From contig DASPIO010000028.1 of the NCBI GenBank assembly GCA_035629155.1, positions 23,762 to 87,761 of the forward strand: DNA of 64,000 nt, in the 5' to 3' direction. How positions within the stretch are numbered: position 1 is the first letter of the stretch; the number at the start of each line of letters is the position of its first letter. Below are positions 15,568-39,462 of this stretch, piece by piece. The DNA comes from Azospirillum sp. Lineage in GTDB: Bacteria > Pseudomonadota > Alphaproteobacteria > Azospirillales > Azospirillaceae. A program made the position numbers and the translations under genes. The notes under the pieces are model-generated. The model had not been told where the DNA came from. It saw only the letters and a list, made by a program, of their open reading frames with translations, and searched no databases.

Positions 15568-15621
15568 TCCCGTGGGTGGTGGGATGCCGCGAGTTTCGCG
15601 CGCATGCGTCTTCAGGCGGGC

Positions 15622-15700: not shown

Positions 15701-15701
15701 G

Positions 15702-17337: not shown

Positions 17338-17403
17338 GACGGCCTCTCTTTGGGATTGGGGACCACAGTCCCATTGCTGCGCTGCACGCGTTTTGACGCG
17401 CGT

Positions 17404-18584: not shown

Positions 18585-18591
18585 GGAGACC

Positions 18592-21296: not shown

Positions 21297-21299
21297 CGC

Positions 21300-21563: not shown

Positions 21564-21571
21564 CTCGTACC

Positions 21572-22192: not shown

Positions 22193-22218
22193 GGGGTGCT
22201 TACCTCCTGGGGGATGGA

Positions 22219-24036: not shown

Positions 24037-24800
24037 GCGAAGCGCCTCACCGCAGGAGCCGCGCCGGTGTTGATCCGCTGGCCGGCGTAGTCGGCCAGCG
24101 ACACGCTGCGCAGCCCCTCGCCCTTGGCGAAGGTGGCGACGTTGACCAGGTTCATCGATACGCGGCGCGTCGACCCGTAGGTCTGGCCGATGAGATGTTC
24201 CAGCAGATCGTCGGCGACGGTGATGTCCGGGCAGTACAGCTTGGCCAGCTCGCGCGCGTCGTCGCCGTCGCAGGGCTGGGCGGCGACGAAGTCGAACACG
24301 CGGCTGTGGAAGCGCTCGTACCGCTGGAGCTTCTGCGGCAGCCCCTCCTCGCCGATCAGGATGATGGAGGCGGTGCCGGGCGCGGCCATGTCGTGGAAGG
24401 CGCGGACCTTGTCGATCATCTCCTTCTTGGCCAGGAAGTCGCCCTCGTCGATGACCAGGGGGCGGCGCGAGGTCTCCAGTTCCTCGGCGATCTTCTCCGC
24501 CATCTCGTTGTTCGTGGCGTGCGTGGGGAGCGCCAGACCCATGGCGTCGACGATGGCGCGCAGCATGGCGCGCGGGGTCCAGTAGTCGTTGGCCTCGACG
24601 TAGTAGGCCATGTGCTCGCTGGCGGCGATCCAGGCGGCGGCGCGGCTCTTGCCGTCGCCGCTGCGGCCATGGAAGACACCGAAGCCGGAGACGTCGGAGG
24701 AGCGCGTCTTGAGCCCGATGACCAGCTCTTCCAGCAGGGTCAGGTTGCGCAGCGGGGCCCAACGGCTGGCGGTCTTGCGGGGGGCGGCCGATTTCTGCAT
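24033..24800 (-). CDS. MuB-type AAA+ transposition ATPase
   Basis: Walker A GRSGDGKS, Walker B LVIDEGD, ILIGEE...RFHSRV; directly after the transposase. Confidence 0.93.
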   Translation of the reverse strand: MQKSAAPRKTASRWAPLRNLTLLEELVIGLKTRSSDVSGFGVFHGRSGDGKSRAAAWIAASEHMAYYVEANDYWTPRAMLRAIVDAMGLALPTHATNNEMAEKIAEELETSRRPLVIDEGDFLAKKEMIDKVRAFHDMAAPGTASIILIGEEGLPQKLQRYERFHSRVFDFVAAQPCDGDDARELAKLYCPDITVADDLLEHLIGQTYGSTRRVSMNLVNVATFAKGEGLRSVSLADYAGQRINTGAAPAVRRFA

Positions 24801-24879
24801 GGTGGGGGTCCTTCGATCAGTGCTGTTTTCCGTGCGGTCCGCGGCGTCCCATCTGGCCATGGGCGCCGCTGGCCGGATC

Positions 24880-27054
24880 TCATTCGACGGGACGGGCGAA
24901 GCGGGCCTTGCGCTCCTGGTCGCGGCGGCGGGCCTGGTACCAGGCCGACGTGCGGTTCGACGCCAGCCAGTCCAGATCGTCCTCCGACACCTCCTCGCCG
25001 GCCTCGATGCGCGCCTCGATCGCCTGGGCGCGGCGCCACCAGCGGTCCTCCGGCTTCTCGGCGGCCTGGGCCGGGGCGGCGAGGCGGCGGGCGACGTCGG
25101 CCTGCCGGACCGTGTCCGCCTCGGTGCGCGGCGCCGCGACGGCGGGCTTCGACGCGGTGATCGCGCGCTGGGCGGCCTCCAGGCCGGCGGAGGGCGGCGG
25201 CAGGGACGAGCGCGGCAGCGCGGAAACCGTGGCCGCGGGCCTGCCGATCAGCGCGTCGGCGAGCTGGTGCGGCTTGAACCCCTTGCCGGCGGCGCGGATG
25301 GCCGCCTTCTGATCGGCGATCAACTGCTGTTGCAGCGCCTTGGCCTGGGCCGACAGCTCGGCCCGCGACAGGCCGGCGCGTTCCGGGTTCTGGGCGATGC
25401 AGAGGAATTGGAACGGATCGGGGCGGTACACGAAGACCCGGTCCATCCGCTCCGGATCCAGTCGGACCTCCAGGCGGTCGCCGGTGCCGACGTAGGGGAT
25501 CAGCTCCGGCGCCCAGAAGTCGGCGTTCTCGACCCGGATTCCCTTTTTGCCCACGGTGCGGGTGCCGTCGCCGTCCGCGCAGGGCATCAGCAGCAGGTCG
25601 AGTTGGCGTTCGTCGACGACGCGCCACTCGGATCCTGCGTGCTCCTCCGCCACGGCGGCCGGGGTGCGGTCGCCCAGGCCGGCGTGCGGGCTGGTGTGAT
25701 AGCGGTTCTCGACCCACGCATCGGCCAGCATCTGCAGCTCGGCCGCCGGCAAGGCCGCCTCGAACACCTCTTCGTCCTTCTGGCCCAGGCGGGCGGCGAA
25801 GGTCTGGCGCGAGCGGATCTCCTGACGCTTGGCCACGTTGTGGCCGGTGTAGCCGGGCAGCAGCGGCATCAGCCCGTGCTGAACCGTGCCGATCGCGCGC
25901 TCGACGTGCGGCTTCTGCTCGGGCGAGTACGGTGTGCAGACGGGGTGCCGTATGGCGTCGCCAACCAGCGCGAAGAAGCGTTGCGTCTCGCGGGCCAGGA
26001 AGTCGGAGCCGTTGTCCGTCTTGATCGCCTCGGGCATGCCCCAGGCGAGGATGGCCCGGCGGATCAGCAGCAGCACGGCCGAGGCGCGCGGCACCTTGGT
26101 GACCAGGATCAGCATGCGGCGCGTGAAGACGTCGACCACGACGTAAATCGTGTGCCGCCCATCGGTCAGCATCAGGTCGGTCGGGCTGGCGTCGATCTCC
26201 CACAGCTCGTTGGGCTTGGTGATCGCCTCCGAATAGGAGCCGACGGCAACGAGGCTGCGGTTCTTCCAGGCGTCGGGGTTGGTCAGCCGCAAGTGGAGCT
26301 GCTTGTACTCCTCGCGCCATTGGTTGAGGCGGCGGCGGATCCAGCCGGCGGTGGGCATCTTCGCCTGACCGCCGCGCAGCAGCTCGAACCCCTCGCCGAA
26401 GCGCTTGACCAGGGCCGCCCGGTAGGCGTCGGCGTTCCAGTCGGGCTTGGCCAGCGCCACGGCGACCAGATAGCCCATGATGTCCTCGCGCGCCTGATCC
26501 AGCGACCCGGCACCCTTGCGGTTGCCGTAGGCGCCGGCCAGCCGGGCGGCCTCGCCGGACTCCACGGCCTCGACCCAGCGGCGAAGGGACGATGGGGACA
26601 CCGTGGGCTTGGCGGCACGGGCCCAATCCGGCACGTCCACCTCGCGGGCGTTGTAGAAGCCGGTGAACTTGTGCACCAGCCGGTCGCGGGACAGGCCGCC
26701 GGCCTGCCGCTCGAAGGCGAGGAAGGCGTTGGCGATGGTGGCCTTGGCGTCCAGCCGGGCCTTGCCGGCCTTGGTCAGCACCACCGGGGCGGCGGCGGTG
26801 CCTTTCAGCGTGGCCGCGAGCTTGGGCGGCGCCGGCGGGGTGGCCTGCTCGGCGGCGCGGCGGCCCAGTTCGATGCGGGCTTCCGGCGGAAGGGCTGTGA
26901 CGTGGTACTCGGTGCCGCCGCCGCGGCCCTGGCGGGGGCGAGCGGGCGACCAGCGTTCCTGCTGGGCCCGCATGTTGATGCCGCGCTTGGTGGACGGCAG
27001 GCCGGGGAGCGCGAAAAAGGCCAGTTCAGAAGCCGTGTACCAGCTTTCATCCAT
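24880..27054 (-). CDS. MuA-type DDE transposase
   Basis: N-terminal Mu DNA-binding domain (WYTASELA..ALPGLPST.RG), DDE motifs WEIDAS / KTDNGSDF / KPHVER, Mu C-terminal domain. Confidence 0.97.
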   Translation of the reverse strand: MDESWYTASELAFFALPGLPSTKRGINMRAQQERWSPARPRQGRGGGTEYHVTALPPEARIELGRRAAEQATPPAPPKLAATLKGTAAAPVVLTKAGKARLDAKATIANAFLAFERQAGGLSRDRLVHKFTGFYNAREVDVPDWARAAKPTVSPSSLRRWVEAVESGEAARLAGAYGNRKGAGSLDQAREDIMGYLVAVALAKPDWNADAYRAALVKRFGEGFELLRGGQAKMPTAGWIRRRLNQWREEYKQLHLRLTNPDAWKNRSLVAVGSYSEAITKPNELWEIDASPTDLMLTDGRHTIYVVVDVFTRRMLILVTKVPRASAVLLLIRRAILAWGMPEAIKTDNGSDFLARETQRFFALVGDAIRHPVCTPYSPEQKPHVERAIGTVQHGLMPLLPGYTGHNVAKRQEIRSRQTFAARLGQKDEEVFEAALPAAELQMLADAWVENRYHTSPHAGLGDRTPAAVAEEHAGSEWRVVDERQLDLLLMPCADGDGTRTVGKKGIRVENADFWAPELIPYVGTGDRLEVRLDPERMDRVFVYRPDPFQFLCIAQNPERAGLSRAELSAQAKALQQQLIADQKAAIRAAGKGFKPHQLADALIGRPAATVSALPRSSLPPPSAGLEAAQRAITASKPAVAAPRTEADTVRQADVARRLAAPAQAAEKPEDRWWRRAQAIEARIEAGEEVSEDDLDWLASNRTSAWYQARRRDQERKARFARPVE

Positions 27055-27541
27055 GATCGGCCTCCCGGATGCGGGCCTTCAGCTGGCTCCGGGCGGCCAT
27101 GTAGCGGGCGACCATCCCATCGCCGGCGTCGAGCATGCGGGCGGCTTCCCTGGCGTCGACGCGGCCGTCATTGCCCATGGCGGCGGCGAACTCCGCGAAA
27201 AGCCGACCTACCTGCTCACCAACGGCGGCCAGATCCTGGGGCAGGTTGCCAGCGTCGGCGTCGGTGAGGGGGCGGAACAGCAGGTAGCCCTGCTCGGCGG
27301 CCAGGAACTCGGTCACCACCATGCAGCCGGAGGCCGCCTGTAGGGCCCGCACGTCCGGGACCTTGAAATGCGCATTGCGGTTCGCGGAGTCCGGATCCGT
27401 GATGCGCTGGATCGTGGATTGCGACAGGCCAGTTAGTTCGGCCGCGCGATCCTGGCCCCGGCACCTCTCGACCAGTTCGGCGTAGGACGCTTTGAGGGTG
27501 CCGGGTTGCCGGGGCTTATACGCGCCTGGGTATTGGGCCAT
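27047..27541 (-). CDS. Phage regulatory protein (CII-like)
   Basis: Sits between ner and A; V..LQAASG..VVTEFLA...GY pattern of CII-like regulators. Confidence 0.65.
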   Translation of the reverse strand: MAQYPGAYKPRQPGTLKASYAELVERCRGQDRAAELTGLSQSTIQRITDPDSANRNAHFKVPDVRALQAASGCMVVTEFLAAEQGYLLFRPLTDADAGNLPQDLAAVGEQVGRLFAEFAAAMGNDGRVDAREAARMLDAGDGMVARYMAARSQLKARIREADHG

Positions 27542-27802
27542 GGTTTTACCCGTTGTGCGAGTAGCGGTTGCGATGCGACGGTCAAGGCGCGAGGAAATGG
27601 AGGATTAAATGCGGCTTGATCGAGCAAACTTCGGGCGGGAGGCGGTCAAGCACCTACTGGTGGGACTCGCCGCGCTGGGCGCGGCGATGTCCTCCGGAGG
27701 ATCGGCGCGGGTGGCGCTGGTTGATGAGGCGGGCCGCCGGTTCGGCTATGCCGCGGCAGTGTGGAAGGTGCGGGGTCTGTACCCGGCGCGGGACGGCGAG
27801 GG

Positions 27803-28090
27803 TCATGCCGCAGCTCTTTCCTCGGCGCCGCCGCGGGTGCGGCAAAGCCGGACACCGTCTGGCCGGTAACGCTCCGGAAACAGGTCGTGCACGGCGACTT
27901 CCAGCCGGTCGGCCAGCGCCCGCTCGATCCTTTCTGACGGTAGGAACAGGGCCTGCGACACGGCCTGGGCGCACACTTCCAGCTCGGCCGCGATCTGGCG
28001 CAGGCTGGAGCCCTTCCGCTTCAGGGAGGCGACCACCCAATCTCTGCGGTCCTGTGGGTCCGAGGGTACTCCGGATCTACGCATCGTCAT
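27803..28090 (-). CDS. ner: Ner-like early regulator
   Basis: WVVASLKRKGSSLRQIA...ERIERALADRL......LFPERY, the Ner/Nlp HTH pattern; divergent from the repressor. Confidence 0.9.
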   Translation of the reverse strand: MTMRRSGVPSDPQDRRDWVVASLKRKGSSLRQIAAELEVCAQAVSQALFLPSERIERALADRLEVAVHDLFPERYRPDGVRLCRTRGGAEERAAA

Positions 28091-28226
28091 CCCTACGACT
28101 ATCGATATGTCTACCGTCGTATCACGAGCATGCTTCGCATGCAACGAGCATTTTCGATGTGGGAATCCTTCCCGGTTCGGCCCACGCTTGAAGGGCGCGC
28201 GCATGTGCAAAGGCGACGGGATAACA

Positions 28227-28787
28227 ATGACTTACGACAACCGGGAAGGGCCGGACGAAGTGGGAAGGGCTCTTCCCACTTACGAGGCGGAACTGGGAAC
28301 ACGGATTTCCCTCGTCATCGACCTGTACGATCTTAAGGCCGACGCGGCACGGGTCGCGGATGTTACGCCCGAGATGTTGAACCGGTACGTGCGCGGACAG
28401 CACAAAATACCCTTCACCAACGCCGCTCGGCTGGCTTCAGCCAAAGGTGTCAGTCTTGACTGGCTGTGGAGCGGAGAAGGACCAATGCTTCTGCGTGATC
28501 GCGTGCACGACTCGCCGCCAGCGGCGGTCGAGTCATTCGACCTTGCGTTGATGGGCAATCTCGTGTCCGGCCTGATGGCATTCCTGCAAAGGGAGAGCCT
28601 GGATCTAGATCCGGAATACATTGGTCGGGCGGTGACCCTGCTTTACATGCTGATGGAGCGCGAGCGCCGCGACACCACCCCGGAGGATCGGCCGGATCTG
28701 TGGGTGGAGGGGCACCCCGTGGACATCGCAAACGATAAAATCCTGGCGGAAACCGTACGCCTCGCACTCGGGCGGTTGCGTAGGTAG
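28227..28787 (+). CDS. Prophage repressor (XRE HTH; no S24 peptidase domain)
   Basis: AARVADVTPEMLNRYVRG...LASAKGVSLDWLWSGEGPM; divergent from ner at the left end, as for Mu c. Confidence 0.85.
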   Translation: MTYDNREGPDEVGRALPTYEAELGTRISLVIDLYDLKADAARVADVTPEMLNRYVRGQHKIPFTNAARLASAKGVSLDWLWSGEGPMLLRDRVHDSPPAAVESFDLALMGNLVSGLMAFLQRESLDLDPEYIGRAVTLLYMLMERERRDTTPEDRPDLWVEGHPVDIANDKILAETVRLALGRLRR

Positions 28788-29277
28788 GACTATCAGGTGT
28801 AGCTTCATGGCTCGCCGCAACCCTGAGTACGTGAGTATGCAGGCCGCGGTGGGGGCCAGGGCTACCAACCCCGGTCGCCCAGGGTGCGCACACACCCCGG
28901 AACGAGAGAACGCAACGACACGCGCTAGTCGCGTCTCGCCCCCCAGCCGCCACGCGGCAAGGGGAAGTGTAAGGCCGGGAGTGTGCATGAAAAGCTTAGA
29001 TGTCGAAGCGTGCTTCCCTTCAAAAACCGTGATCCTCGCCGAATTTGAGGCGATACTCATCCACGCTCGCCCACGGCGTGTGGTCGCATGCCCCTTGTGG
29101 AATGGAGAGTTGAGAGCGTGTCAAAAAGACGATATTTCAACTCGGCCAGAACAGAGGGGCAGCCTTGCTCCTCATCATGATCAATGTGGTCGGTGAGCGC
29201 TGAATTTTCCGTGCGTGTGTAGACGATTGTAGACGGTAAAGCGACAACGCAAAGAGACACATCGGAGGAACGCAGCA

Positions 29278-29514
29278 ATGAAGCCGGAAGACCGTCCGAC
29301 ATCCATGGTTTCTTTTCCGCTAACAATAGTTGGCGTGCTATTTCTTGCCGGAGGCGGGATGATGCTAACCGGCACTCCGCCGAACTTCATCGGCTCGATC
29401 GGCGCGGTGGGGATCGGGCTAGCCCTGATCGGCTTGGCCGGCATCAACACGCGCTTGGCCGAGGTGATCCACGAGTTGCGCCTCATCCGCGCCGCCGCAG
29501 AGAGGGTGCCATGA
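29278..29514 (+). CDS. Small two-TM membrane protein (left-end moron)
   Basis: Two hydrophobic segments; coupled to the next gene. Confidence 0.6.
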   Translation: MKPEDRPTSMVSFPLTIVGVLFLAGGGMMLTGTPPNFIGSIGAVGIGLALIGLAGINTRLAEVIHELRLIRAAAERVP

Positions 29515-30035
29515 AAGCCGGTCACCTCGCCCTGTCTGCTTTCTTCCTTCTCGGATCAGCCGGGCCTTGCGCGGCCGATTGGCAGTTCACCCGATGGGGA
29601 ATGACGGTCGAGGAAGCTGTTCGTGCAGCTGGGGCCGCAGGGGTGAATGTGGATGCGGGCGGCACTGTGCCTTCCGGCGACGGCAAGCTTACGAAGCTCC
29701 CCATTCCATACTACAAGGTGGGCAGTATATTTTTTGATATATCTCTGGTGTTCGAGTCGCCGGATAATAGGCTTGTCATGGTGCTGATGACGGTGAGTCA
29801 GCGCGGCGATTTTGACAGGCAGAAGCTCGACGCCCTGCGTATGGATTTGCTTCAGGCGTTCGGCTCTCCTTTTGCTGTGAATCAGCAAGACGGGTTTGAC
29901 CTCGCGATGTGGCGCGACGTGACCCGCAACAACCGGATATTCGCGAAAATCCGCGTCGATCCGCCGGGCAGAACGGGCGGCCTGCGCGACACCTCCATCA
30001 TGTACACGCCGCTCGTTCCCGTCAGCGCCTTCTGA
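29511..30035 (+). CDS. Exported protein (left-end moron)
   Basis: Signal-peptide-like N-terminus followed by WQFTRWGMTVEE. Confidence 0.7.
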   Translation: MKAGHLALSAFFLLGSAGPCAADWQFTRWGMTVEEAVRAAGAAGVNVDAGGTVPSGDGKLTKLPIPYYKVGSIFFDISLVFESPDNRLVMVLMTVSQRGDFDRQKLDALRMDLLQAFGSPFAVNQQDGFDLAMWRDVTRNNRIFAKIRVDPPGRTGGLRDTSIMYTPLVPVSAF

Positions 30036-30044
30036 CCGGCCACC

Positions 30045-30217
30045 GTCAAACCATCCGTCCGTCAGCGTACAATGCGGCGATGTCCGTATGGTTTGACAGA
30101 ACGGAGTGGACGCGTCTCGAAAACCTAGGCATCACAACGCCTGCACGTCCCACTCGATCCCCCAAAATCCCACCGTATCCCGGCCCCCTATCCCGTCAAA
30201 CCATTGGTCTCTCTACA
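30045..30217 (-). repeat. Helper left end (attL): three transposase-binding motifs (30045-30054, 30088-30097, 30195-30204) and terminal CA
   Basis: GTCAAACCAT / ATGGTTTGAC / GTCAAACCAT; read inward, the end is TGTAGAGAGACCAATGGTTTGAC. Confidence 0.9.
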
Positions 30218-30955: not shown

Positions 30956-31000
30956 TGTAGCGCGCCGAATGGTTTGAATTGGCGCGCTGGATGGTTTGAC
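30956..31000 (+). repeat. Satellite right-type end: terminal TG and two tandem ATGGTTTGA sites (30969, 30991) 22 bp apart
   Basis: Read directly from the sequence; the 22-bp period matches Mu R1/R2 spacing. Confidence 0.88.
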
Positions 31001-31053
31001 AGCGCTGACACCCCGTTTCAGGCTTACCGGGAATTGAAGAAGCCTTGGCGCTT

Positions 31054-31467
31054 CTAGGCTAGCGCCGGCAGTGTCGCATCGTCGCCCAGGTGCGCAATTT
31101 GAACATTCCTTCCCGGCGGCTTCCCCCCTGGAGGCTCGATGATAACAACGCCGTCTTTCGTATGATAATGGATAATCAGGACTGTGCGCGCACATCTGGC
31201 GGGATTGGAAAGACGGGACAGGGCTTGCCGATTGTACTTTTTCAAAAAGCGAAAGCATTCACGCATATAGATCCTGTATTCTTCCTGAATATCTTTGCGG
31301 AGCTGTTCCAATGCCGTTGGGCATGGCGGGTTGCCGCACAGATCGCTTTCCCACTTGGCAAATACATTATTCAAACGCGATGAAAGGTCGGCCGCCACTT
31401 CCCCTGACAGCAGGCGCGCGGTTACCTTCTGTGGGCGCTCCCCTGTGCCGTCATACGCGTGCTGCAT
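31054..31467 (-). CDS. Satellite cargo, hypothetical protein (137 aa)
   Basis: AGGAG upstream of TTG ATG; lower GC. The ORF track labels it '+', but the listed translation (MQHAYDG...) reads on the minus strand. Confidence 0.6.
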   Translation of the reverse strand: MQHAYDGTGERPQKVTARLLSGEVAADLSSRLNNVFAKWESDLCGNPPCPTALEQLRKDIQEEYRIYMRECFRFLKKYNRQALSRLSNPARCARTVLIIHYHTKDGVVIIEPPGGKPPGRNVQIAHLGDDATLPALA

Positions 31468-31518
31468 CAACGTCCACTCCTGATTGGTTCGTTATGCCCT
31501 CCCGCTCGACAAGAGGGC

Positions 31519-31546
31519 CGCTCGGCCGGATCTGGCCGGCCGAGCG
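31519..31546. repeat. Perfect 11-bp inverted repeat just downstream of the satellite chaperone stop
   Basis: CGCTCGGCCGG-ATCTGG-CCGGCCGAGCG; no U-tract, so a terminator role is uncertain. Confidence 0.6.
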
Positions 31547-31554
31547 CGCCGGAA

Positions 31555-32079
31555 TCACTTCGGCTGCTCGCCGTTGACGAGCTGCCAATAGGCGTCCTCC
31601 ATCGCCTTGCCGATCACGCGATAGCCGGCCATGGCTTCCACGAGGTCGGGCGAGAAGTCCGGCAGCGTCGAGAAGAAGGCATTCCAGCCGTGGTTGTCGG
31701 GCAGCCCCACCACCACCTTCCGCAGCAGCTCCGTGCGAAAGCCCTTGTGCTGGCTTTCCAGCTTCTCGACTTTGGCGTTGAGTTCCTTCAGATCCTTTTT
31801 CGCCTTGGCGGCGTTGCCGTCCGACGCTTCCAGGGCGAGTTTCGCGGCCTCCTGCTTGGCCTCCGCGATCTCGCTGACGCGCTGGCCCAGCTCGGCGATG
31901 AGCTGATCGTGCTCGCTGTCCGGCAGCAGCATGAACGACAGATAACAGGTCTTTTTGACCTGTTTCCCACCCACCCAGCCGCCGCTGGCACGCTTGGCCG
32001 TTTCCGGCCAGTTGAACATGACCGGCCACACAAACGTCATTTCGGTGGGGGCTGCAAGAGTAATCTTAACCTGTTCCAT
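31555..32079 (-). CDS. Satellite tail assembly chaperone G (paralogue of 713-1207), no frameshift site
   Basis: Shared motifs TF.WPV...WPE.AK, KTC...F.L.PDSE.D.L, LLR.VVVGLPDNH.W, LP.FS.DLVEAMA, W.LVNG. Ends GAG CAG CCG AAG TGA. Confidence 0.9.
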   Translation of the reverse strand: MEQVKITLAAPTEMTFVWPVMFNWPETAKRASGGWVGGKQVKKTCYLSFMLLPDSEHDQLIAELGQRVSEIAEAKQEAAKLALEASDGNAAKAKKDLKELNAKVEKLESQHKGFRTELLRKVVVGLPDNHGWNAFFSTLPDFSPDLVEAMAGYRVIGKAMEDAYWQLVNGEQPK

Positions 32080-32102
32080 TTCCGCTCTCACTCGTTCTTT
32101 AG

Positions 32103-32540
32103 TTAATCCATCAACGAATTGAAGTATTCTGCAATGTCTCTCCATTCGCCTGTCAAAGACTGCTTTGCTGATGCGATCAGGTCATTGATGTACACCTCAA
32201 CTTCGAACCTGACATTCTTTCTTTTGTTTTGGTACAGCGCGCTCAGTCGGCGCCTCTGCCAGCGCTTTGTTAACATGGACCCGAGAAGGCGTTCGGTGTC
32301 GTCAATGTGCGCCACCAGTATTCTCTCAATGCTTGCTCGCAGATCGGAAAACAGAGGATGTCTGGCATCAAAATGTTCTGATGATCCAACCAGTTCAGAA
32401 AACGCATTGCGATTGCTGATATCCCAGCGTTCCAGCACGCTGCGGATTGCGTCAGCTCCGTTTGTCGGCATAGCGGGGCGCATTATCCGAAACTCGACGC
32501 TGTTGCGGTTCTGGATCGGTATTCGGCCGCGTGCGGGCAC
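32103..32540 (-). CDS. Satellite cargo, hypothetical protein (start uncertain)
   Basis: AT-richer ORF between the Ntn-like gene and the chaperone; no recognised family. Confidence 0.55.
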   Translation of the reverse strand: MPARGRIPIQNRNSVEFRIMRPAMPTNGADAIRSVLERWDISNRNAFSELVGSSEHFDARHPLFSDLRASIERILVAHIDDTERLLGSMLTKRWQRRRLSALYQNKRKNVRFEVEVYINDLIASAKQSLTGEWRDIAEYFNSLMD

Positions 32541-33145
32541 CCAAAGCGGTCGTAATACTCGCTATAATCAGGGTAAAATCCTGCTATTTTTTGATCGGCG
32601 CCATGCTCATTTACTTCGGTAAGATGCATGACGCCACCAATGCACATTGGTTGACTAAATTTCTCCTGTACCTTGTGCTGCCCAAGCGCCATCTTTACCA
32701 TCATGGCCTCATCGGCATGCGCGGGAAGGCGCACACCCGGCGCCATTCTGGGCGCAAGATGAATGCCCGGCTCCATCGTGGTCGCCTGGACAGGCACACC
32801 ACCGGCGCGAAGCTTGTACCTCGTGCTCTGCGGCGCCTGCTTGTTGGCGGACCAGCACATCAACGTGATTTCACCACCGGACGCTTCGAAGAATTCATCA
32901 CCGATACGCTCGGGGACGCCGCGAATAACGATATCCACATGCTCTATGCTTTCGACGCGCGCCAGTACAGGCCCAAGGACTTGAAGAAGCGCATGTGTTC
33001 CGCGCATGGAGAATGCAAATCGGCCGCTCTCAGAGACGAAACACTTTCGTTCGCAAAGGCCAACCGGCATGTTGCCCCGGTATATCATCGTGTCCGTCAG
33101 GCACAAAATGCGGTCGCTTCCCACGAATACGTTGCTGACGCTCAT
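32483..33145 (-). CDS. Proteasome-beta/HslV-like Ntn-hydrolase-fold protein
   Basis: After Met removal: Ser1, Asp17, Lys33, Gly48 and C-terminal IGGVMHLTEVNEHG, matching beta-subunit catalytic spacing. ATGA overlap with the TMP stop. Confidence 0.65.
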   Translation of the reverse strand: MSVSNVFVGSDRILCLTDTMIYRGNMPVGLCERKCFVSESGRFAFSMRGTHALLQVLGPVLARVESIEHVDIVIRGVPERIGDEFFEASGGEITLMCWSANKQAPQSTRYKLRAGGVPVQATTMEPGIHLAPRMAPGVRLPAHADEAMMVKMALGQHKVQEKFSQPMCIGGVMHLTEVNEHGADQKIAGFYPDYSEYYDRFGCPHAAEYRSRTATASSFG

Positions 33146-34530
33146 TTAATTGCCTCTTCGAACGCGGAGACGACTTCGGGGCAGGTCAAGAATTCGTCCG
33201 AGAACTCACACTCGGCCATAACCTTCTCAAGCTCGTTGGACAGATCCTTCAGATTGTCCGTCTGGGTCACGACACCGCCACTGCCGTTGGCGGGCGGGGC
33301 GTTGTCCTGCTTCGTCAGGTCGTTGAGTTCGCGTTGCAGCTCGATCCGGCGCTTGACCAGCGCCTCATGCATGGCGGGAACGCCGCTCGTTTTCTCGGGA
33401 AGGCGCCCGTACTCCCGGTCTATCCGCTCGATCTCCGCCCGCAACAGCGACGCCCTGTCCGACTCGATGCCGGCGCGAAGCGCCTTGGCCGCGTCACTGA
33501 CCTTGCCCGCAACCAGCTTGGCAATGTCGCTCCGGGCGAGGCGGTCAACGTAGGCGTCCCAGGCCACGCCAGCGTCATGCAGCGCGGCGCCCCACTCGCT
33601 GCGCATGGTCTGGGCCGCGCCACCGTACCGCTGGCGCAACGCCTCGATGGCGACGTTCAGCGCGCCGGCCTTGTTGCCGTGGTCAGCCAGCATGCGCACC
33701 TGGCGCTCTTGCTCGACCGACAGGAAGTTCAATTCCGCATCGAGTCGCTTGACGCCCTCGCCCCCCTTGCCGAGAGCGTCCCCCATCTTGGCGGCGGCGG
33801 CCGGGATCGTGTAGCCCAGCACCGCCGCAACATCCGGCGCGAGTTCCAGGATGCTGCGGAACAGCTCCGGGTCACGGAGGTCGGGGTTGCGCACCAGCTC
33901 CAAGGTGGACTGGTATGCTTCGCTGCGGGACGCCCCTGCATGGATCGCGACGTTCGCCATGTCGCGGAGCTGGCCGGCCGTGATGCCGGCCTCATTGCCC
34001 ATCGCCTTCAGGATGGACGCGAGTTCCCGCCCCTCGGCACCGATGCTCGCCATGCGCGCGGCGACGATGCCGATCGGCGCGGCGATCACGGCGGCGGCGG
34101 CGCCGATGCCCAGGATGCGGCCCGTGATGCCGGGGAACGCTTGGAGCAACTGCCCGCCCTGTTGCATCAGGACGGTGAACGGGCTGGCGCCGGACGACAG
34201 CGATGCCGCAACGTCGCTGGCCGTGTAGCTCAGCGCCTGGATCTGCTGCGTGCTGAACCTCGTCTTGGTCGCCAAGTTGTCGTTGGCGCTGGCCGCACCG
34301 CCGAACGCCGCACCGGCCCTGTCGGCGGCGCCGGCCGCAGCGCCCAGCGATTGCTTCGCCTCGTCCGCCAGTGTGTCCAGGCGGCCAAGCGCCTGTGAAA
34401 GTTGCTGGCCAGCTTCCCGGCCAGTATCACCAAGCTTGGACACCTCGCCCGTTGCCTTGCGAAGCTCCACTACGAAGTCTTCGGCTTCCGCAGTCAGCTT
34501 GAGGACGACGTGTTCTGCAACCTTGGTCAT
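33142..34530 (-). CDS. Satellite short tape measure protein (462 aa)
   Basis: QQIQALSYTASDVAASLSSGASPFTVLMQQGGQLLQAF lambda-family TMP motif; N-terminus similar to the helper TMP start at 304. Confidence 0.88.
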   Translation of the reverse strand: MTKVAEHVVLKLTAEAEDFVVELRKATGEVSKLGDTGREAGQQLSQALGRLDTLADEAKQSLGAAAGAADRAGAAFGGAASANDNLATKTRFSTQQIQALSYTASDVAASLSSGASPFTVLMQQGGQLLQAFPGITGRILGIGAAAAVIAAPIGIVAARMASIGAEGRELASILKAMGNEAGITAGQLRDMANVAIHAGASRSEAYQSTLELVRNPDLRDPELFRSILELAPDVAAVLGYTIPAAAAKMGDALGKGGEGVKRLDAELNFLSVEQERQVRMLADHGNKAGALNVAIEALRQRYGGAAQTMRSEWGAALHDAGVAWDAYVDRLARSDIAKLVAGKVSDAAKALRAGIESDRASLLRAEIERIDREYGRLPEKTSGVPAMHEALVKRRIELQRELNDLTKQDNAPPANGSGGVVTQTDNLKDLSNELEKVMAECEFSDEFLTCPEVVSAFEEAIK

Positions 34531-34647
34531 GACGATACTCGCTCGCGATTGGGCCGGCGCTGGACTGCTAGACCAGCCCAGCGCCGGCCGCACTCCGATG
34601 CGGTAAGGAGAGCCGGCCCCCGCACCGGATGCCGCTGGGATGCCCGG

Positions 34648-35568
34648 TTACAGGTACGGGGACACCACCAGTTCGGCGGTGCCGGCCCACTCGTTGGGCG
34701 CCGCGACCGTCTGTTCGTTCGGCGCCGTGCCCACCGTGACCAGCTTCATGTTGTTCTTGATGAGACGCAGCCCGTCGCCTTCCAACTCGTCCGGCACCAC
34801 GAGGATGTTGGGGGTAAGGCCCAGCTTCTTGCCGTTCTCGCCCCGGATGCTCTTGATCGCCACGCGGGCCGCCTCGTAGTTGTCGTGCGTCAGCGGCGCC
34901 TTGCTCGCATAGGCGAGCTGCCAGAGCCCGAAGCCGGCGTTGGCGCGCGCGCGGACGCCGTAGAAATACTCGTCTTTCCAGAAGACGTTGTCGTCCGTGG
35001 CGGCGTCCTGCCTCTGGAACTCGTACGGCAGCCGCTCCTGAAACACGAGGGGTTTGACCGGCTGGCCGGCGTCCATCAGGAACCACGCCGGCCCGGCCCC
35101 ATCCTGATAGTTGCTGTAGGACGTAGGCTGACAGTCGATATCCACGACATGATCAGTGGAGAAGAACGGCTTGCCGTCGTAGCACAGCTCGGTAAACCCG
35201 GCTGCCAGAAGCTCGTACACCAACTGGTCGGGGTGCTTCGCCGCGTCGGCGCCCATCTTCTCGTACAGCGGGCCGAAGACGCCGTACTGGTCATCTTCGA
35301 TGGCCGTACGGGGAACGCCAATGGTCACCTCAAACGTGCGGTTCTTGATGGTGTAGCCCGCGACTTCAAGGTTATGGATGATACGCGAGCCGATCCATTC
35401 CCGAAGCTGCGGAAGTTCCTTCAACCAACCATAAGCTTCTTCGCCCGTCGCGCTGTTTGTCTTCATGGCGATTTTCAGGTACGTGCTTTCGACGCCCTTG
35501 AAGCCCTTGTTGAAGGAGGTCTTGAACCCGGCGAACATGCCGGCGAGGTTGGGGGCGGTGATGAGCAT
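34648..35568 (-). CDS. Satellite Mu-like major capsid protein gpT (306 aa)
   Basis: MLITA...F.GF.TSF, REWIG.R..HNLE, CYDG..FF.TDH, GFG.WQLA..SKA.LT..NYEAAR; divergent paralogue of 4750-5643. Confidence 0.95.
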   Translation of the reverse strand: MLITAPNLAGMFAGFKTSFNKGFKGVESTYLKIAMKTNSATGEEAYGWLKELPQLREWIGSRIIHNLEVAGYTIKNRTFEVTIGVPRTAIEDDQYGVFGPLYEKMGADAAKHPDQLVYELLAAGFTELCYDGKPFFSTDHVVDIDCQPTSYSNYQDGAGPAWFLMDAGQPVKPLVFQERLPYEFQRQDAATDDNVFWKDEYFYGVRARANAGFGLWQLAYASKAPLTHDNYEAARVAIKSIRGENGKKLGLTPNILVVPDELEGDGLRLIKNNMKLVTVGTAPNEQTVAAPNEWAGTAELVVSPYL

Positions 35569-35577
35569 GGCTGTCCC

Positions 35578-36543
35578 TTACAGGTTCTTGGCGTATTCGG
35601 CCGGATCGTGTCCGAGGGCCGCGCAGATGGCCTTCTGTTCGGCGGTAAGGCGCCCATCGGCGCCCGAGTTCGGATCGGGCGGCCGGCCCCCCGGCACCAC
35701 CTCACGGGCGAGGTTGCCGAACACGGGCGGAGCGCTGGCGGCGAACTGGTCGAAGCTGGCCGGGTTGGATCGGCAGAGGACGAGCCCCCACTCCCGCTGG
35801 GCCGGTGTCATCTTGCCGGCGCGGATCGCGGCGTCGACCTTGGCCGTCGCCTGCTCCTCCGAAAGGTTGGTGCGCATGCTGGCGAGCTGCGTCGCGGCTT
35901 CATCATAGAGATGGCGCGGCACGTAGAGGGACGGGTCGGGCACGGCGGCGGCCGTCGCCTTCTCGCTGGCGTCCTTGACCAGCTTCGTGACGGCCTCGAT
36001 CACGGCCGCTTCGTCGCTGGTGTCGGGCAGGTTCAACAGCGCGCACAAGCGCTTGATGGTTTCGGGCGACATGGGCGCTCCCATACTGGCAAGGGCCTTG
36101 AGTTCGAAGGCCGGGTTGTTGACCAGGGCGGCCCGAAGAATGCAGGTGACCGCGCCTTCCTTGGTGTGCCGGAAGACGGGGGACACGTAGCGGTACTCCC
36201 TGGCCGCGATCTTGGCAGCGGCGCGCTGCGTCCACTCCACGCGGCCCCAGATGCCATCAGGGCGGGCCTCAAAGGCCGCGATCCAGCCTGCGGCGGGCGC
36301 CTGTCCACCGTGCGGGGCGGCGAGGTCAACGGCGTGGTCGTAGTCGATCACCGGCTTGACCGGACCGGCCATCGTCAGGGACGCGGCGATCACCTGTTGC
36401 GCGGCGGCCATGCCGGGAAGGGACCAGGGGCCGCGACCGTCGCGGCCCTTGATGGTGCCGTAGGGCAGAAGCTGCACCCAATCCGGCGGTGCGGCGGGGA
36501 GTTCGGAAGAGAAGGAGGCGAGAGCGATCAGGGGATCAGTCAT
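35578..36543 (-). CDS. Satellite prohead protease/scaffold gpI; internal scaffold start at 36072
   Basis: DWVQLLPYG, PVIDYDHA, GIWGRVEWT, EYRYVSPVF, ALVNNPA. GGGAG precedes the internal ATG (MSPETIKRLCALLNL). Confidence 0.93.
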   Translation of the reverse strand: MTDPLIALASFSSELPAAPPDWVQLLPYGTIKGRDGRGPWSLPGMAAAQQVIAASLTMAGPVKPVIDYDHAVDLAAPHGGQAPAAGWIAAFEARPDGIWGRVEWTQRAAAKIAAREYRYVSPVFRHTKEGAVTCILRAALVNNPAFELKALASMGAPMSPETIKRLCALLNLPDTSDEAAVIEAVTKLVKDASEKATAAAVPDPSLYVPRHLYDEAATQLASMRTNLSEEQATAKVDAAIRAGKMTPAQREWGLVLCRSNPASFDQFAASAPPVFGNLAREVVPGGRPPDPNSGADGRLTAEQKAICAALGHDPAEYAKNL

Positions 36544-36910
36544 TGCTAATATCCCCATAGATCTCGCGGCGCACTTTCCTTACGTGGCGTTCAGTACATC
36601 CCACGGCCTGTGCGACGACACGCGTTTTCGCGCCTTCCATCGCCAATATCAGTTCCTTCTTGGAACCAGCCGGCGGCGGCAACACCGGGATGTCAATCTG
36701 TTCTCCAGGATACATATTTCCTATTATTTTGGCGTGCTCCAGTCCGACAATCTTTGCGATCTTGGATCGTTCCGAAGGGCTCGCGGCAAATTTCCTCTTA
36801 GTGCCGCCCCAAGAAAGGCCAAGTTTTATTGCCGTTTCGTATGATGTCGCCCGCGCAATACCCGCCAAGAAGGGAGGAAGCCTCTTGATCCTGTCATCAG
36901 TGATCGCCAT
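36536..36910 (-). CDS. Satellite Mor/C-family activator (paralogue of 15702-16076)
   Basis: WGGTKRK, YPGEQIDIP and GCTERHVRKV shared with the helper activator. Start placed at ATG 36910 by alignment; the track's GTG at 36952 overlaps the predicted -10 box. Confidence 0.88.
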   Translation of the reverse strand: MAITDDRIKRLPPFLAGIARATSYETAIKLGLSWGGTKRKFAASPSERSKIAKIVGLEHAKIIGNMYPGEQIDIPVLPPPAGSKKELILAMEGAKTRVVAQAVGCTERHVRKVRREIYGDISND

Positions 36911-36948
36911 AGCCTTGACGTAGCCCCCCGGCATCGGAATTGGTTCCG

Positions 36949-36995
36949 ACACTAGGGGGACGGAGAAGCGTCTATCGACGCGGAACTAGTTCCCC
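36949..36995 (-). promoter_or_regulatory. Satellite late promoter: dyad GCGGAAC-TA-GTTCCCC (36980-36995) plus -10 TAGTGT (36949-36954)
   Basis: Same dyad and 25-nt spacing as the helper late promoters. Confidence 0.7.
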
Positions 36996-37067
36996 TTTGT
37001 CGGGGGAGCTGAGAGATATCCAGCTTTGATGAAGAGGAGCGGCCGATACGCCCGGCCGATTGCCGCC

Positions 37068-37092
37068 CGTTTGAACGGGGCTTTGAACGCCT
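37068..37092. repeat. Tandem TTTGAACG repeat shared with helper 7369-7393
   Basis: CGTTTGAACGGGGCTTTGAACGCCT vs CGTTTGAACGGGGTTTTGAACGCCT, 24/25 identical. Confidence 0.85.
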
Positions 37093-37251
37093 CTGGGGCG
37101 TAGGGCGCACCCACGCTACCGGAAAACGCCAGAACGCACCAGCGGGCTTCCTGTGGGCTTCCAGGGCGGGGCACCCGGCAGCCACCTCCAATGCGAAACG
37201 CCCCGCCGGTAGACCCGGCGGGGCGTTGGTGTCGGCAGCGCGGCGAGGCGT

Positions 37252-37584
37252 CTACGCCTCGCGGGCGTGCCCGCCAGCGCCAACCGCGCGCTCCATGATC
37301 GTATCGACCTTCTCCGTGACTAGCTCCAGCATGGCGATCCACTGGCCCCGCTCGGTGGTGCCCATGATCATCGCTTCAATGGCGCGCAGTCCGGCCTTCA
37401 CCTGCATCAGGTCGTCGCCCAGGCTGTGTTCTGCCTCGCCAGCGACGTAGCCGGCCATGCCCCTCCTACGCGCCTTCCCCATGATGGACGTGAGTTCTTC
37501 GATCACCGCTTCTCTGACCGCGCTCCCCCGCTCCGCGCTGTTCTTGAGGAAGATCACGTTGTTTCCGGTGTTGTCGTGGGCCAT
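37252..37584 (-). CDS. Satellite early hypothetical protein (110 aa)
   Basis: AGGAGG upstream of ATG; helical ORF downstream of the Bro-like gene. Confidence 0.6.
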   Translation of the reverse strand: MAHDNTGNNVIFLKNSAERGSAVREAVIEELTSIMGKARRRGMAGYVAGEAEHSLGDDLMQVKAGLRAIEAMIMGTTERGQWIAMLELVTEKVDTIMERAVGAGGHAREA

Positions 37585-37691
37585 ATTCGAAGAGCCTCCT
37601 ATGGGTTCGCCCGGTGGCACGGTGGCGGGGCACGGTTTTCCAGGCCAAGCGCCCCGCCACCACCCGTCGCGGGCGGTGGGGTGGTAGGGAA

Positions 37692-38216
37692 TCACGATCC
37701 GGCGATGTCGAGGATGCGACGCGCCTTCTCGATGGTGACCGTCAGTTCCATGCGCACGAGGTTGGTTGTGGGGATGCCAGCCCCCGCCTCGCCCATGTCC
37801 AGGCCCGGCGGGATCGGCGGGGCCTCACCCTCCGGCCCGAAGGTCGTGTAGAGCCACCGCAGCACCCCAACGGCGTGGGCGGAGCGACTACGGGCCACCA
37901 TCACCTTCGCGGCAGGGATGGAAAGAAGGCGGGTTGCGGCGCCTCTCCCGTCGTCGATCTGGCGCAGTAGGACGGCGCCCGGCTCTCGCAGTTCCGGGAA
38001 GGTTGACGCGGCATGGTCCACCGACTGCCTTGCCCAACTGGCGCCGGCCGCCCGCATCAGGTCGTTGCCGAGGACGTAGGTTGTGCCGTCCACCGAGAAG
38101 ACGCGGACGGGGGCCGCACCACAGTAGAGGGTGCAGACAGGCGGCAGGCGGGCGTTGTCGGCTGGCACCTCGGGCCGTCCTTCGGCGGGGGCCGCTGGTG
38201 TGCGGGGATCGTCCAT
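37692..38216 (-). CDS. Bro-N / antirepressor-like protein
   Basis: VRVFSVDGTTYVLGNDLMRAAG...LLSIPAAKVMVARSRS.HAVGVLRWL pattern. Confidence 0.7.
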   Translation of the reverse strand: MDDPRTPAAPAEGRPEVPADNARLPPVCTLYCGAAPVRVFSVDGTTYVLGNDLMRAAGASWARQSVDHAASTFPELREPGAVLLRQIDDGRGAATRLLSIPAAKVMVARSRSAHAVGVLRWLYTTFGPEGEAPPIPPGLDMGEAGAGIPTTNLVRMELTVTIEKARRILDIAGS

Positions 38217-38244
38217 CTACTGCTCCAAACTGCGGTTGCGTTGG

Positions 38245-38315
38245 CCCCATGCATGGGGTAATTTGCCCCAGATTGGGCGCCGTTGCAATGGCAAAATGCG
38301 CCAACGTTGGGGTAA
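38245..38315. promoter_or_regulatory. Three operator-like dyads between divergent regulators
   Basis: CCCCATGCATGGGG (38245-38258, perfect), CCCCAGATTGGGCG (38266-38279), CGCCAACGTTGGGG (38299-38312). Confidence 0.65.
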
Positions 38316-38323
38316 ATCGCACC

Positions 38324-38560
38324 ATGATTACGGGTGACCAAATCCGGGCCGGCCGGGAACTGCTCAACTGGTCTGCCCGCGTCTTGTCTGAGCGGGCAGG
38401 CGTGGGGCCGAACACGGTGCAGCGCATGGAAAGCGCCGGAGCGGCGGTGCCATCAGGTCTTGCCGCCAACCTGGACAAGGTGCAGAAGGCATTAGAGGCG
38501 GGTGGGATTGAGTTCCGGGACGGCGGGTGGGTGCGTAGGTCACCGCAGAACGGCGCGTAA
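38324..38560 (+). CDS. XRE-family HTH regulator (satellite repressor candidate)
   Basis: MITGDQIRAGRELLNWSARVLSERAGVGPNTVQRME...LEAGGIEF, a common alphaproteobacterial XRE pattern. Confidence 0.88.
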   Translation: MITGDQIRAGRELLNWSARVLSERAGVGPNTVQRMESAGAAVPSGLAANLDKVQKALEAGGIEFRDGGWVRRSPQNGA

Positions 38561-38645
38561 GACGTGCTACCGATCACCAATGCGAGGGTGTCAACGCCAA
38601 AGTGATGCACCTTAACCACCGGCATCACTGTGGTAAGGTGCGCAC

Positions 38646-38843
38646 ATGGCTGTGAACCCGGATACCACCGTACGCAAGGTCGTCTCGCTTCCCAAAGAGT
38701 TGTGGGAAGAGGTGAGCGACTATCGCTTTGATAACAGATTGGGCACGGAAGCGGACGCGCTTCGGCGTCTGATCCAACTTGGATTGGATGCCGCCAAGGC
38801 CAGTCCCCGCGATCCTGGCCGCGCACCGTCGCGGAAGCGCTAG
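38646..38843 (+). CDS. Ribbon-helix-helix (CopG/Arc-like) protein
   Basis: RKVVSLPKELWEEVSDYRF...TEADALRRLIQLGL. Confidence 0.8.
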   Translation: MAVNPDTTVRKVVSLPKELWEEVSDYRFDNRLGTEADALRRLIQLGLDAAKASPRDPGRAPSRKR

Positions 38844-39291
38844 TCGCTCCCCAAAGCAAGCGAGGCGGGACCGCGCCAGCGGCCCCGCCTCGTAGTGTCT
38901 GGCACCCATGCGGAGGGTTGGGAGACTGGCGTCAACGGACGCCACGCCCCACCACGTTGCCACACCAGCGCCCGCCCGATGCCTCGGAACGAGTTCCGCT
39001 TGGTGGGAGCCGGCGGCAGGCTCCATCTACAACCGGCGCGCGATCCCGAGACGGCGGGCCGGAACCGGAACCCCTTCCCACTTCCGGACGGATCTTTCAT
39101 CGCGCGATGGTTGTGACGGAAACGCAAGCCACTGCAATAACAAGCTTTTTTGAACTGTAGCCTTCCCAGTTTGACTGGAAACGCTAGCTTCCACTTCCGT
39201 CCCACTTCCGTAGCCGAACCGGGACCCGGCCTACGCGCCACATCCCTTGCAAATCTTGGCTTTAGCTGCGTTTTAGTGCCGCCTCCGTTCA

Positions 39292-39462
39292 GTCAATCCA
39301 TACGTCTCCCGGACACTTTCGCGCGTTGCGCCGCATGGTTTGGCGGAAAATTCCGGTTGTGCCCCTAACCCTATGATCCAATGCGCCGTTCATCCCATCT
39401 GATCCCCGAAAATCCCACGGTATCCCGGCCCCCTATCCTGTCAAACCATTGGTCTCTCCACA
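39292..39462 (-). repeat. Satellite left-type end: three transposase-type sites (39292, 39335, 39440) and terminal CA
   Basis: GTCAATCCAT / ATGGTTTGGC / GTCAAACCAT in the same orientations as the helper, spacings 43 and 105 bp vs 43 and 107 bp. Last 62 bp are 58/62 identical to 30156-30217. Confidence 0.92.

Follow-up and report, generated by a model that had tools for sequence, protein, structure and literature searches.

A divergent proteasome-like Ntn hydrolase coupled to the tape measure gene of phage-satellite-like elements

Satellites that carry their own tape measure protein (TMP) genes have been recognised just recently (PLE in 2026, EPIPs in 2025). PLE satellites put their own TMP into tails that are otherwise built by the helper phage, by a mechanism described as unknown, and one of them, PLE11, encodes a protein named Rta that disables the helper TMP (PMC12987554). 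Inhibition of tail assembly is a common satellite strategy (PMC11364771). The TMPs of phages lambda and T5 undergo cleavage in the course of tail assembly, and the hub is plugged by their last 20–35 residues; the peptidase domain of T5 pb2 is released by cleavage and retained in the tail tip (PMC10038345). Here, we describe a gene for a proteasome-like N-terminal nucleophile (Ntn) hydrolase that is translationally coupled to a short TMP gene in a satellite of a Mu-like prophage. The gene lies in a 64,000-nucleotide stretch of contig DASPIO010000028.1 from Azospirillum sp. (the window, from whose first letter all positions are counted), and an initial annotation had singled it out as a protease of the proteasome-beta/HslV type.

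The catalytic Thr of the bacterial protease HslV is exposed by removal of the initiator Met, and the C-terminal tails of its partner HslU dock into HslV and activate it. In proteasome-type enzymes generally, the free alpha-amino group and the side chain of residue 1 act together with Asp17 and Lys33 (PMC8665760). A survey by Fuchs, Alva & Lupas in 2021 distinguished clusters named PPH, RPC, DPH, AAH and CPH, and described divergent proteasome-like proteins in proteobacteria and phages that have a Thr1/Ser1-Asp17-Lys33-Gly47 set and no propeptide; of these clusters, DPH is small and confined to proteobacteria (e.g. WP_074989469.1; PMC8665760). The Ntn protein of the window is a divergent member of the same superfamily, HslV-like in having no propeptide, and the predicted nucleophile of its family is either Ser or Thr. 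The family has so far had no name and is restricted to phage-satellite-like elements.

The Ntn protein and its cassette

The Ntn gene is read on the minus strand and its translation runs MSVSNVFVGSDRILCLTD18...CERK34...MRG49...CIGGVMHLTEVNEHG, with CIGGVMHLTEVNEHG close to the C-terminus. In mature numbering (Met removed) the residues of interest are S1, D17 (in LCLTD), K33 (in CERK) and G48 (in MRG). These four residues and a late beta-strand had been picked out by the initial annotation, which left the DNA strand unstated, and all are present in the translated open reading frame (ORF). The junction with the preceding gene, read on the minus strand, is ...GAAGAGGCAATTAAATGAGC, also written ...TTCGAAGAGGCAATTAAATGAGC. 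Here, the ATG of the Ntn gene (33145-33143) shares the 4 bp ATGA with the TGA (33144-33142) of a 483-amino-acid upstream ORF, and an AGAGG Shine-Dalgarno sequence lies 7 nt 5′ of the ATG. The triplet directly before this ATG, in its own frame, is TAA; therefore, Met-Ser is the sole possible N-terminus of the protein.

Relatives of the Ntn protein were found by sequence and by profile. Its close homologues number three among 5.8 billion clustered proteins, and a profile search of 1.84 billion representatives gave 185 clusters, nearly all of which aligned from their own residue 1. Family members are labelled 'hypothetical protein' by NCBI. Scans of Pfam, PHROGs, NCBIfam and PADLOC gave no Ntn match, none of 132 family members matched PF00227 (Proteasome) even at E ≤ 1, and a single-sequence phmmer search of the Ntn protein against the PDB returned noise alone (Nup37, E = 1.6).

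Conservation was counted across 132 full-length homologues with pairwise identity of at most 50%. Numbered from the initiator Met, M1 is present in 100%, and position 2 is Ser or Thr in 131 of the 132 (95 Ser, 36 Thr). D18 and G49 are found in all 132 and K34 in 131, while R48 is found in 125 (95%), N5 in 91%, P132 in 99%, Q156 in 94%, and the G170-G171 pair in approximately 100%. The interchange of Ser and Thr at mature position 1 is the pattern expected of a nucleophile. Conservation of residues 1, 17 and 33 in homologues was one of two points on which the initial annotation had staked itself beforehand, and these residues are essentially invariant across the 132 homologues. The catalytic set is not a product of chance, because the residues picked from one sequence are the most conserved columns of a family with a proteasome-beta-like fold.

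The second of these points concerned the fold, which had been proposed to be the alpha-beta-beta-alpha sandwich of Ntn hydrolases, and the predicted structure agrees with the proposal. AlphaFold2 models were built from alignments of four sequences (predicted local distance difference test, pLDDT, 78; predicted template modelling score, pTM, 0.80) and of 132 sequences (pLDDT 95.4, pTM 0.91). The order of elements in the model, beta x6 / alpha-alpha / beta x4 / alpha / beta-beta / alpha, is that of a proteasome-type Ntn sandwich. When compared with the PDB by Foldseek, the four-sequence model gave 664 matches at E ≤ 1e-3 and the 132-sequence model 899. For both models every one of the top 50 is a 20S beta subunit, at template modelling (TM) scores of 0.45–0.65; for the 132-sequence model alone, these top 50 have E-values from around 1e-8 to 6e-7 and TM scores of 0.51–0.65. 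The viral library yielded, as best matches, phage proteins of no assigned function together with an HslV and a 'proteasome beta type-2'.

Sequence profiles lead to the same superfamily. The sole significant match of the family profile in the PDB is proteasome beta1i (E = 1.3e-3), in register over the whole chain: D18 is paired with D17, K34 with K33, RG48-49 with SG46-47, and ciGGvmhlttvt with SSGGVIHLVTIT. The glycine of the oxyanion hole is offset by one residue relative to G47 of beta1i, and the region of Ser129 has no reliable alignment with 20S beta subunits. We hold with high confidence that the protein folds as a proteasome-like Ntn hydrolase with its catalytic set intact, and from its conserved residues and modelled structure it is predicted, almost certainly, to be catalytically active. 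A distal tail protein, the usual product of the gene that follows a TMP gene, was considered as another identity and is ruled out by the fold and the catalytic residues; in addition, one related locus (L024) has a separate gene resembling that for the distal tail protein (Dit).

The genomic setting of the family was followed in related loci, of which a search with the four-sequence alignment recovered three from genomes and one from a metagenome; the locus statistics rest on about 17 contexts. Twelve loci belong to the close family (the window, L001 (= L002, L020), L006, L008 (= L009), L011, L012, L013, L014, L021, L022, L023 and L024). The Ntn gene lies directly 3′ of a TMP gene in 12/12 of these, and in 11 the junction is ATGAG(C/T), with the same 4-bp ATGA overlap and usually a GGAGG about 7 nt 5′; the other, L013, has a GTG start and overlaps its TMP gene by 13 nt. 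Both the 4-bp overlap with the TMP gene and the coupling that it was taken to indicate, as first annotated, are thus kept beyond the window, the overlap in related loci and the coupling in every close-family locus.

The partner genes are TMP genes of more than one kind. The window TMP scores 86 bits against PF06791, where the cut-off is 30.2, and matches five PHROG TMP families at E < 1e-8. It resembles just the middle part of phage TMPs of about 1,280 amino acids, and it matches Rhodobacter and lambda-like phage TMPs over residues ~110–466 alone. Across the loci, the TMPs of the cassette belong to TMP_2, TMP_3 and other PHROG TMP families, are 449–904 amino acids long and match merely parts of phage TMPs of 900–1,500 amino acids. 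The Ntn protein is the best-conserved protein among the close-family loci. It is followed by a d1-type helical protein of about 125–145 amino acids, Arg/Lys-rich at its centre, in 10/10 close loci that extend far enough, and the start of d1 mostly overlaps the Ntn stop as ATGA. The d1 protein of the window had no match in any library, and its profile found nothing meaningful in the PDB. In L024 the cassette (TMP, Ntn, d1) leads on to a Dit-like gene and, after it, to a gene resembling that of a tail terminator.

Possible roles in tail assembly

From this arrangement, the Ntn protein probably works with the tape measure. The initial annotation had offered three roles (maturing the short TMP, degrading a helper protein, or defence), and the data narrow this choice without settling it. 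No copy of its gene was found by tblastn in 50,697 phage genomes, which argues for a function in piracy over ordinary TMP maturation; a gene that is absent from ordinary phages and universal beside satellite TMPs favours a job specific to piracy. In the mechanism that we propose, host methionine aminopeptidase would remove Met1 and expose Ser1, which would act as nucleophile with Asp17, Lys33 and an oxyanion hole at Gly48, as in HslV (also without a propeptide). The protein would be made in a fixed ratio with the short satellite TMP and the ~130-amino-acid helical protein, from one translationally coupled cassette. The satellite would build its own small heads from its copies of gpI and gpT, and the cassette would make the helper tail machinery assemble around the satellite TMP (tail piracy). 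Catalytic activity, a part in tail assembly and, most of all, the choice of substrate are inferences: the peptidase would cut a helper tail-assembly protein, most likely the helper TMP or its chaperone, which would remove the competing TMP and also interfere with the helper.

This cutting of the helper TMP or chaperone, by which the satellite TMP would become the one used, is put forward tentatively, as a proposal that falls somewhat short of being probable. A bolder version is possible though doubtful: the Ntn family would be the factor for 'selective incorporation' that is still missing for satellites with a TMP of their own. Docked onto the satellite tape measure, the protease would eliminate the helper TMP or chaperone and leave satellite-type tails as the only product. 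Tail piracy by proteolysis would then be a first, and it would be carried by the first natural mini-Mu without a transposase that is a satellite of a transposable phage.

Several observations weigh against these proposals. Asp166 and Ser169 of the proteasome are unconserved in the Ntn family, where the aligned positions are Pro, Met or Ile and the subsequent Gly-Gly is conserved; Asp166, Ser129 and Ser169 are not listed as defining for the wider family of proteasome homologues (PMC8665760). No unfoldase partner is encoded in the satellite element. The strict 1:1 coupling suits a stoichiometric partner of the satellite TMP no less than a protease directed at the helper. Among distant family members, the upstream ORFs are weakly TMP-like or not TMP-like: they comprise ORFs of 420 amino acids with weak TMP likeness (L025, L026) and others of 854 (L015), 915 (L018) and 68 amino acids (L016). 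The tail genes and TMP of the helper lie beyond the left edge of the window, outside the comparison with those of the satellite, and the C-terminal tail shared by satellite TMPs, described next, is partly confounded by an embedded ribosome-binding site.

The extreme C-termini of the TMPs are alike between families (...TIPDEFADAFGAMIMEALQ, ...MVPDEVADEFNHMVAEVLE and, in the window, ...CEFSDEFLTCPEVVSAFEEAIK). In TMPs of unrelated families they share a motif, (F/I)P.(D/E)...hydrophobic-hydrophobic-x-EA-hydrophobic-x, of which window-type TMP tails are a weaker variant. A hidden Markov model (HMM) made from TMP_3-type tails alone placed two TMP_2-type tails at the top of 2,480 ORFs (E = 2.3e-4 and 0.013), and a related genuine phage TMP has no such motif and a quite different C-terminus. 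However, the Shine-Dalgarno sequence of the Ntn gene (GGAGG or AGAGG) sits in the last TMP codons and encodes the Glu-Ala of the tail; therefore, conservation of the tail is partly an RNA constraint. We treat the TMP tail as a lead towards a docking site, not as evidence for one. A docking motif common to the C-termini of TMP and d1 was also considered and is kept as no more than a lead, as HMM cross-searches were weak (best d1 E = 0.7–0.9; reverse E = 2.7) and the Glu-Ala core comes from the Shine-Dalgarno sequence of the following gene.

The shared tail bears most directly on maturation in cis, in which the peptidase would clip the satellite's own TMP, or remove or handle its C-terminal tail, so that it fits the tail tip and tube of the helper. 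This is unlikely, and of the alternatives it survives best. In 12/12 close loci the Ntn gene is obligatorily coupled to its cognate TMP gene, at what seems to be a 1:1 ratio, the tail is common to TMPs of unrelated families and absent from the related phage TMP, and, as the helpers differ, a conserved partner of the tail should be the Ntn protein or d1. Docking of C-terminal tails has a textbook precedent in the activation of HslV by HslU, and cleavage and hub docking of TMPs of the lambda gpH and T5 pb2 type are established (PMC10038345). Yet ordinary phage TMPs are processed without an adjacent Ntn gene, of which there is none in the 50,697 phage genomes; the RNA constraint on Glu-Ala and the weak form of the motif in the window TMP reduce what can be read from the tail, and some distant members have no recognisable upstream TMP.

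The distant members without a clear TMP would instead suit a stand-alone protease for defence or interference, directed at the helper, a competitor phage or a host protein, whose adjacency to TMP would come from the late operon alone. Satellites often carry defence genes in their hot spots (PMC11364771), and in two loci, the window and L006, the low GC content at third codon positions (GC3) of Ntn and d1 fits a swapped-in cassette. We consider this improbable, because the overlapping-codon junction with TMP has been kept in 12/12 close loci despite differing TMP families and backbones, PADLOC gave no match, and even in the distant L026 the upstream ORF has weak matches to TMP or minor tail proteins.

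The lack of conservation at Asp166 and Ser169 and the stoichiometric coupling to TMP could also be accommodated by a non-catalytic structural adaptor, in which a ring of the Ntn fold would cap or nucleate the C-terminal end of the TMP as a substitute hub or initiator; the position of the Ntn gene between the TMP and Dit-like genes in L024 is in keeping with this. Inactive proteasome subunits, however, lose Thr1, Asp17 or Lys33, and here S/T1, D17, K33 and G48 are 99–100% conserved and the N-terminus is kept exactly at Met-Ser/Thr, which makes an adaptor a poor prospect. We know of no proteasome-type Ntn hydrolase that cuts peptidoglycan. For this reason, and since the Ntn protein has no signal or cell-wall-binding features and its top structural matches are all protein-degrading beta subunits, it is very unlikely to be a tail-borne amidase for entry that replaces a C-terminal muralytic or peptidase domain of the TMP and cuts cell-wall peptides from the tail tip, even though satellite TMPs are truncated relative to phage TMPs, without the C-terminal part, and the cleaved peptidase domain of T5 pb2 stays in the tip (PMC10038345).

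The satellite element, its candidate helper and related elements

The features of the window are listed in table 1. The satellite is flanked by a perfect 5-bp target duplication, GACGC, at 30951-30955 and 39463-39467, and excision of the element with one GACGC copy restores a continuous ORF of ~295 amino acids for a metallo-beta-lactamase (MBL)-fold hydrolase. Genes for a transposase, terminase, portal and tail tube are all absent from the 8,507-bp element. Its terminal 23-mer is found at two places in the window only, the satellite end and the prophage end (0 expected), and the prophage end and each end of the satellite carry TCAAACCAT repeats (30043, 30193, 39290, 39438 and 30960-31000); these shared ends and repeats probably serve as transposase-binding and pac sites common to both. 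The element is a non-autonomous mini-Mu, a satellite of the neighbouring transposable prophage, and the word 'satellite' used in the initial annotation is directly supported by this transposase-less Mu-type insertion with helper-like ends. The satellite gpI is 53 amino acids shorter than that of the helper (326 versus 379), and the gaps in their alignment are confined to the C-terminal (scaffold) half, a difference to be expected if smaller heads were built to hold the 8.5-kb satellite genome.

Table 1. Positions of features in the window; for genes and ends, the last column gives the basis of the assignment.
Feature	Position	Strand	Basis
Helper candidate, Mu-like prophage cut by the left window edge	1..30217	minus	gene content, shared end at 30217
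Entire satellite, 8,507-bp non-autonomous Mu-type element, no transposase	30956..39462		TG..CA termini, duplication
d3, 138 amino acids, last gene before the left element end	31054..31470	minus	ORF
d2, up to 196 amino acids (start uncertain)	31555..32145	minus	weak coiled-coil matches; 52% identical to positional counterpart in L006
d1, 126-amino-acid helical protein, Arg/Lys-rich centre	32103..32483	minus	ATG overlaps Ntn stop (TAATG)
Ntn (Ser1) proteasome-beta/HslV-like hydrolase, 220 amino acids	32483..33145	minus	ORF, predicted fold, conserved residues
Translational-coupling junction: Shine-Dalgarno AGAGG 33157-33153, in-frame TAA 33148-33146, ATGA 33145-33142	33142..33157	minus	sequence
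Short satellite TMP (TMP_2), 483 amino acids	33142..34593	minus	PF06791 E = 3.8e-24, phrog_24 E = 3.5e-20
Satellite major head protein, Mu gpT family	34648..35568	minus	PF10124 E = 4.9e-113; 50% identical to that of the helper
Satellite head protease/scaffold, Mu gpI family	35578..36558	minus	PF10123 E = 2.7e-71; 41% identical to that of the helper
Mor-like late transcription activator	36536..36952	minus	phrog_836 E = 2.2e-12; weak HTH_23 and Mor matches
Satellite end copying the repressor-side end of the helper, 70 nt	39393..39462	plus	90% identical to 30148-30217

The candidate helper prophage has genes for MuA (24880-27054), MuB, TerS/TerL, portal, gpF, gpI (6074-7213) and gpT (4750-5835), and further holds an adaptor gene, a Ner-like gene and a c-like repressor. 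The initial annotation had remarked that the helper has no Ntn gene in the window. This is literally true, as a profile search finds one copy of the Ntn family among all window ORFs, but it carries no weight because the tail genes of the helper fall beyond the left window edge.

Sequence composition and read data add some observations on the element. The GC3 of Ntn and d1 (32103-33145 in the window; 5961-7032 in L006) is 0.50–0.62, compared with 0.72–0.89 for the neighbouring TMP and capsid genes; other loci do not show this, and in the window the Ntn-d1 region is the GC minimum of the entire stretch (53%). The low GC3 suggests that the Ntn-d1 cassette was a recent swap-in in the lineage of the window and L006. 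In a DNA run (X1), a 9,000-nt unitig covers 30727-39726, that is, the satellite with 229 and 264 nt of host-gene flank, at a depth of 469; depth outside the unitig is ~162 and ~120, so that the satellite stands at 3–4x its flanks, and a joint 30694->31074 is also present. This excess is at most an ambiguous hint of helper-dependent mobilisation and packaging, and could come from a strain mixture, local amplification or headful packaging in situ. Soil metatranscriptomes (RNA runs X2 and X3) contain 100%-identical, low-depth contigs across much of 31900-39466, among them 32525-32675, 32745-32895 and, over the TMP/Ntn junction, 33124-33258, with a depth of ~2 over the Ntn gene; they could be transcription or carry-over of DNA and are not counted as proof of expression.

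The elements that host the Ntn family elsewhere look like satellites, and their other genes differ. They are small islands, with backbones of the integrase, AlpA and primase type, modules with capsid genes alone, and mini-Mu elements. L014 has an integrase, AlpA and a Prim-Pol/D5 primase, and L001 has an integrase and HTH_17; L008 and L024 have a terminase, portal, protease-capsid fusion and cement protein, and L018 has an S78 protease and an HK97 capsid. L023 is a mini-Mu with its own transposase, a MuB-like gene and GemA, then gpT, TMP, Ntn and d1. This autonomous element of ~8.5 kb (2617-11115) has a CI-like repressor, a 695-amino-acid Mu-type transposase, a MuB-like ATPase and GemA, and continues with gpT, a 449-amino-acid TMP_2 protein, Ntn and an uncalled d1 (ATGA overlap), directly followed by host genes. 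In L016, tandem Ntn paralogues of 210 and 280 amino acids (3811-4443 and 4855-5697) are separated by a 133-amino-acid gene in an island with an integrase, AlpA and VapE and no TMP. The 280-amino-acid copy matches phrog_13702, annotated as 'terminase large subunit', and this PHROG may be mis-named.

Significance and comparison with known systems

The Ntn fold and its chemistry belong to an already known superfamily. Three things appear to be new in the literature that was searched: the obligatory, translationally coupled pairing with satellite TMP genes, the three-gene TMP-Ntn-d1 cassette, and the presence of this cassette on a natural transposase-less mini-Mu. The literature search found no paper on natural satellites of transposable phages, and the window element indicates that transposable (Mu-like) phages have natural, non-autonomous satellites. 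How a satellite TMP prevails over that of its helper is described as unknown (PMC12987554), and the Ntn enzyme is a candidate at exactly that point; if the reading of selective incorporation is true, tail piracy would for the first time have a mechanism based on proteolysis. The nucleophile is a single residue, conserved over at least four kinds of satellite backbone, in an enzyme that is readily testable. The proteasome/HslV superfamily gains a branch in virus parasites with a concrete candidate class of substrate, a lead that most of the 'astonishing wealth' of proteasome homologues do not have. As a whole, the cassette (short TMP, Met-Ser/Thr Ntn protein, ~130-amino-acid helical protein, overlapping codons) is a possible satellite marker for Alphaproteobacteria and for marine and soil metagenomes, for which the models in current satellite finders are few.

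HslV (ClpQ) resembles the Ntn protein in its alpha-beta-beta-alpha fold class, exposure of the nucleophile by Met removal, absence of a propeptide, Asp17/Lys33/Gly set and single domain of ~200 amino acids. The two differ in that the nucleophile is Ser in 72% of the Ntn family, including the window protein, and Thr in HslV; that the 8.5-kb element and the related loci have no AAA+ or HslU-type gene, the only nearby ATPases being MuB-like; and that the Ntn gene is embedded in a tail cassette of a phage satellite. The 20S beta subunits, represented by beta1i (PSMB9), share the register from Asp17 to the C-terminal SGG-V-I-H-L-V-T-I-T strand. In contrast to them, the Ntn protein (7–15% identical) lacks a propeptide, does not conserve Asp166 and Ser169, has Lys33 and the oxyanion Gly one residue further apart, and has no alpha-type partner encoded with it.

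Of the clusters defined by Fuchs, Alva & Lupas, DPH is the obvious candidate, and the Ntn family, which was set against the clusters by their descriptions, may be this cluster. PPH and RPC proteins have no helix H2, and PPH proteins are about 140 amino acids long (PMC8665760), whereas the Ntn family has H1 and H2 and 220 amino acids; AAH proteins occur in many phage genomes (PMC8665760), whereas the Ntn family has 0 tblastn matches in 50,697. The survey makes no mention of a linkage to tape measures or satellites (PMC8665760). Connectase, an archaeal proteasome-like protein ligase named in the initial annotation as an S1 variant, offers a parallel within the proteasome family in that it acts on a single specific protein partner and needs no unfoldase. 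It lacks both H1 and H2 and carries an insertion of two helices between S3 and S4 (PMC8665760), unlike the Ntn model, which has helices at 51-62 and 67-86 and no insertion between strands 3 and 4.

A biological parallel in outline is PLE, the satellite of Vibrio phage ICP1, in which a shorter, satellite-encoded TMP and a few tail-initiation genes are combined with tails made of helper parts and with a factor that disables the helper TMP (PMC12987554). This factor, Rta, has 80 amino acids and no recognisable fold, is unlinked to tmp and is unique to PLE11 (PMC12987554). In the elements described here, by contrast, a 220-amino-acid Ntn hydrolase is universally and translationally coupled to tmp, and the helper is Mu-like rather than ICP1.

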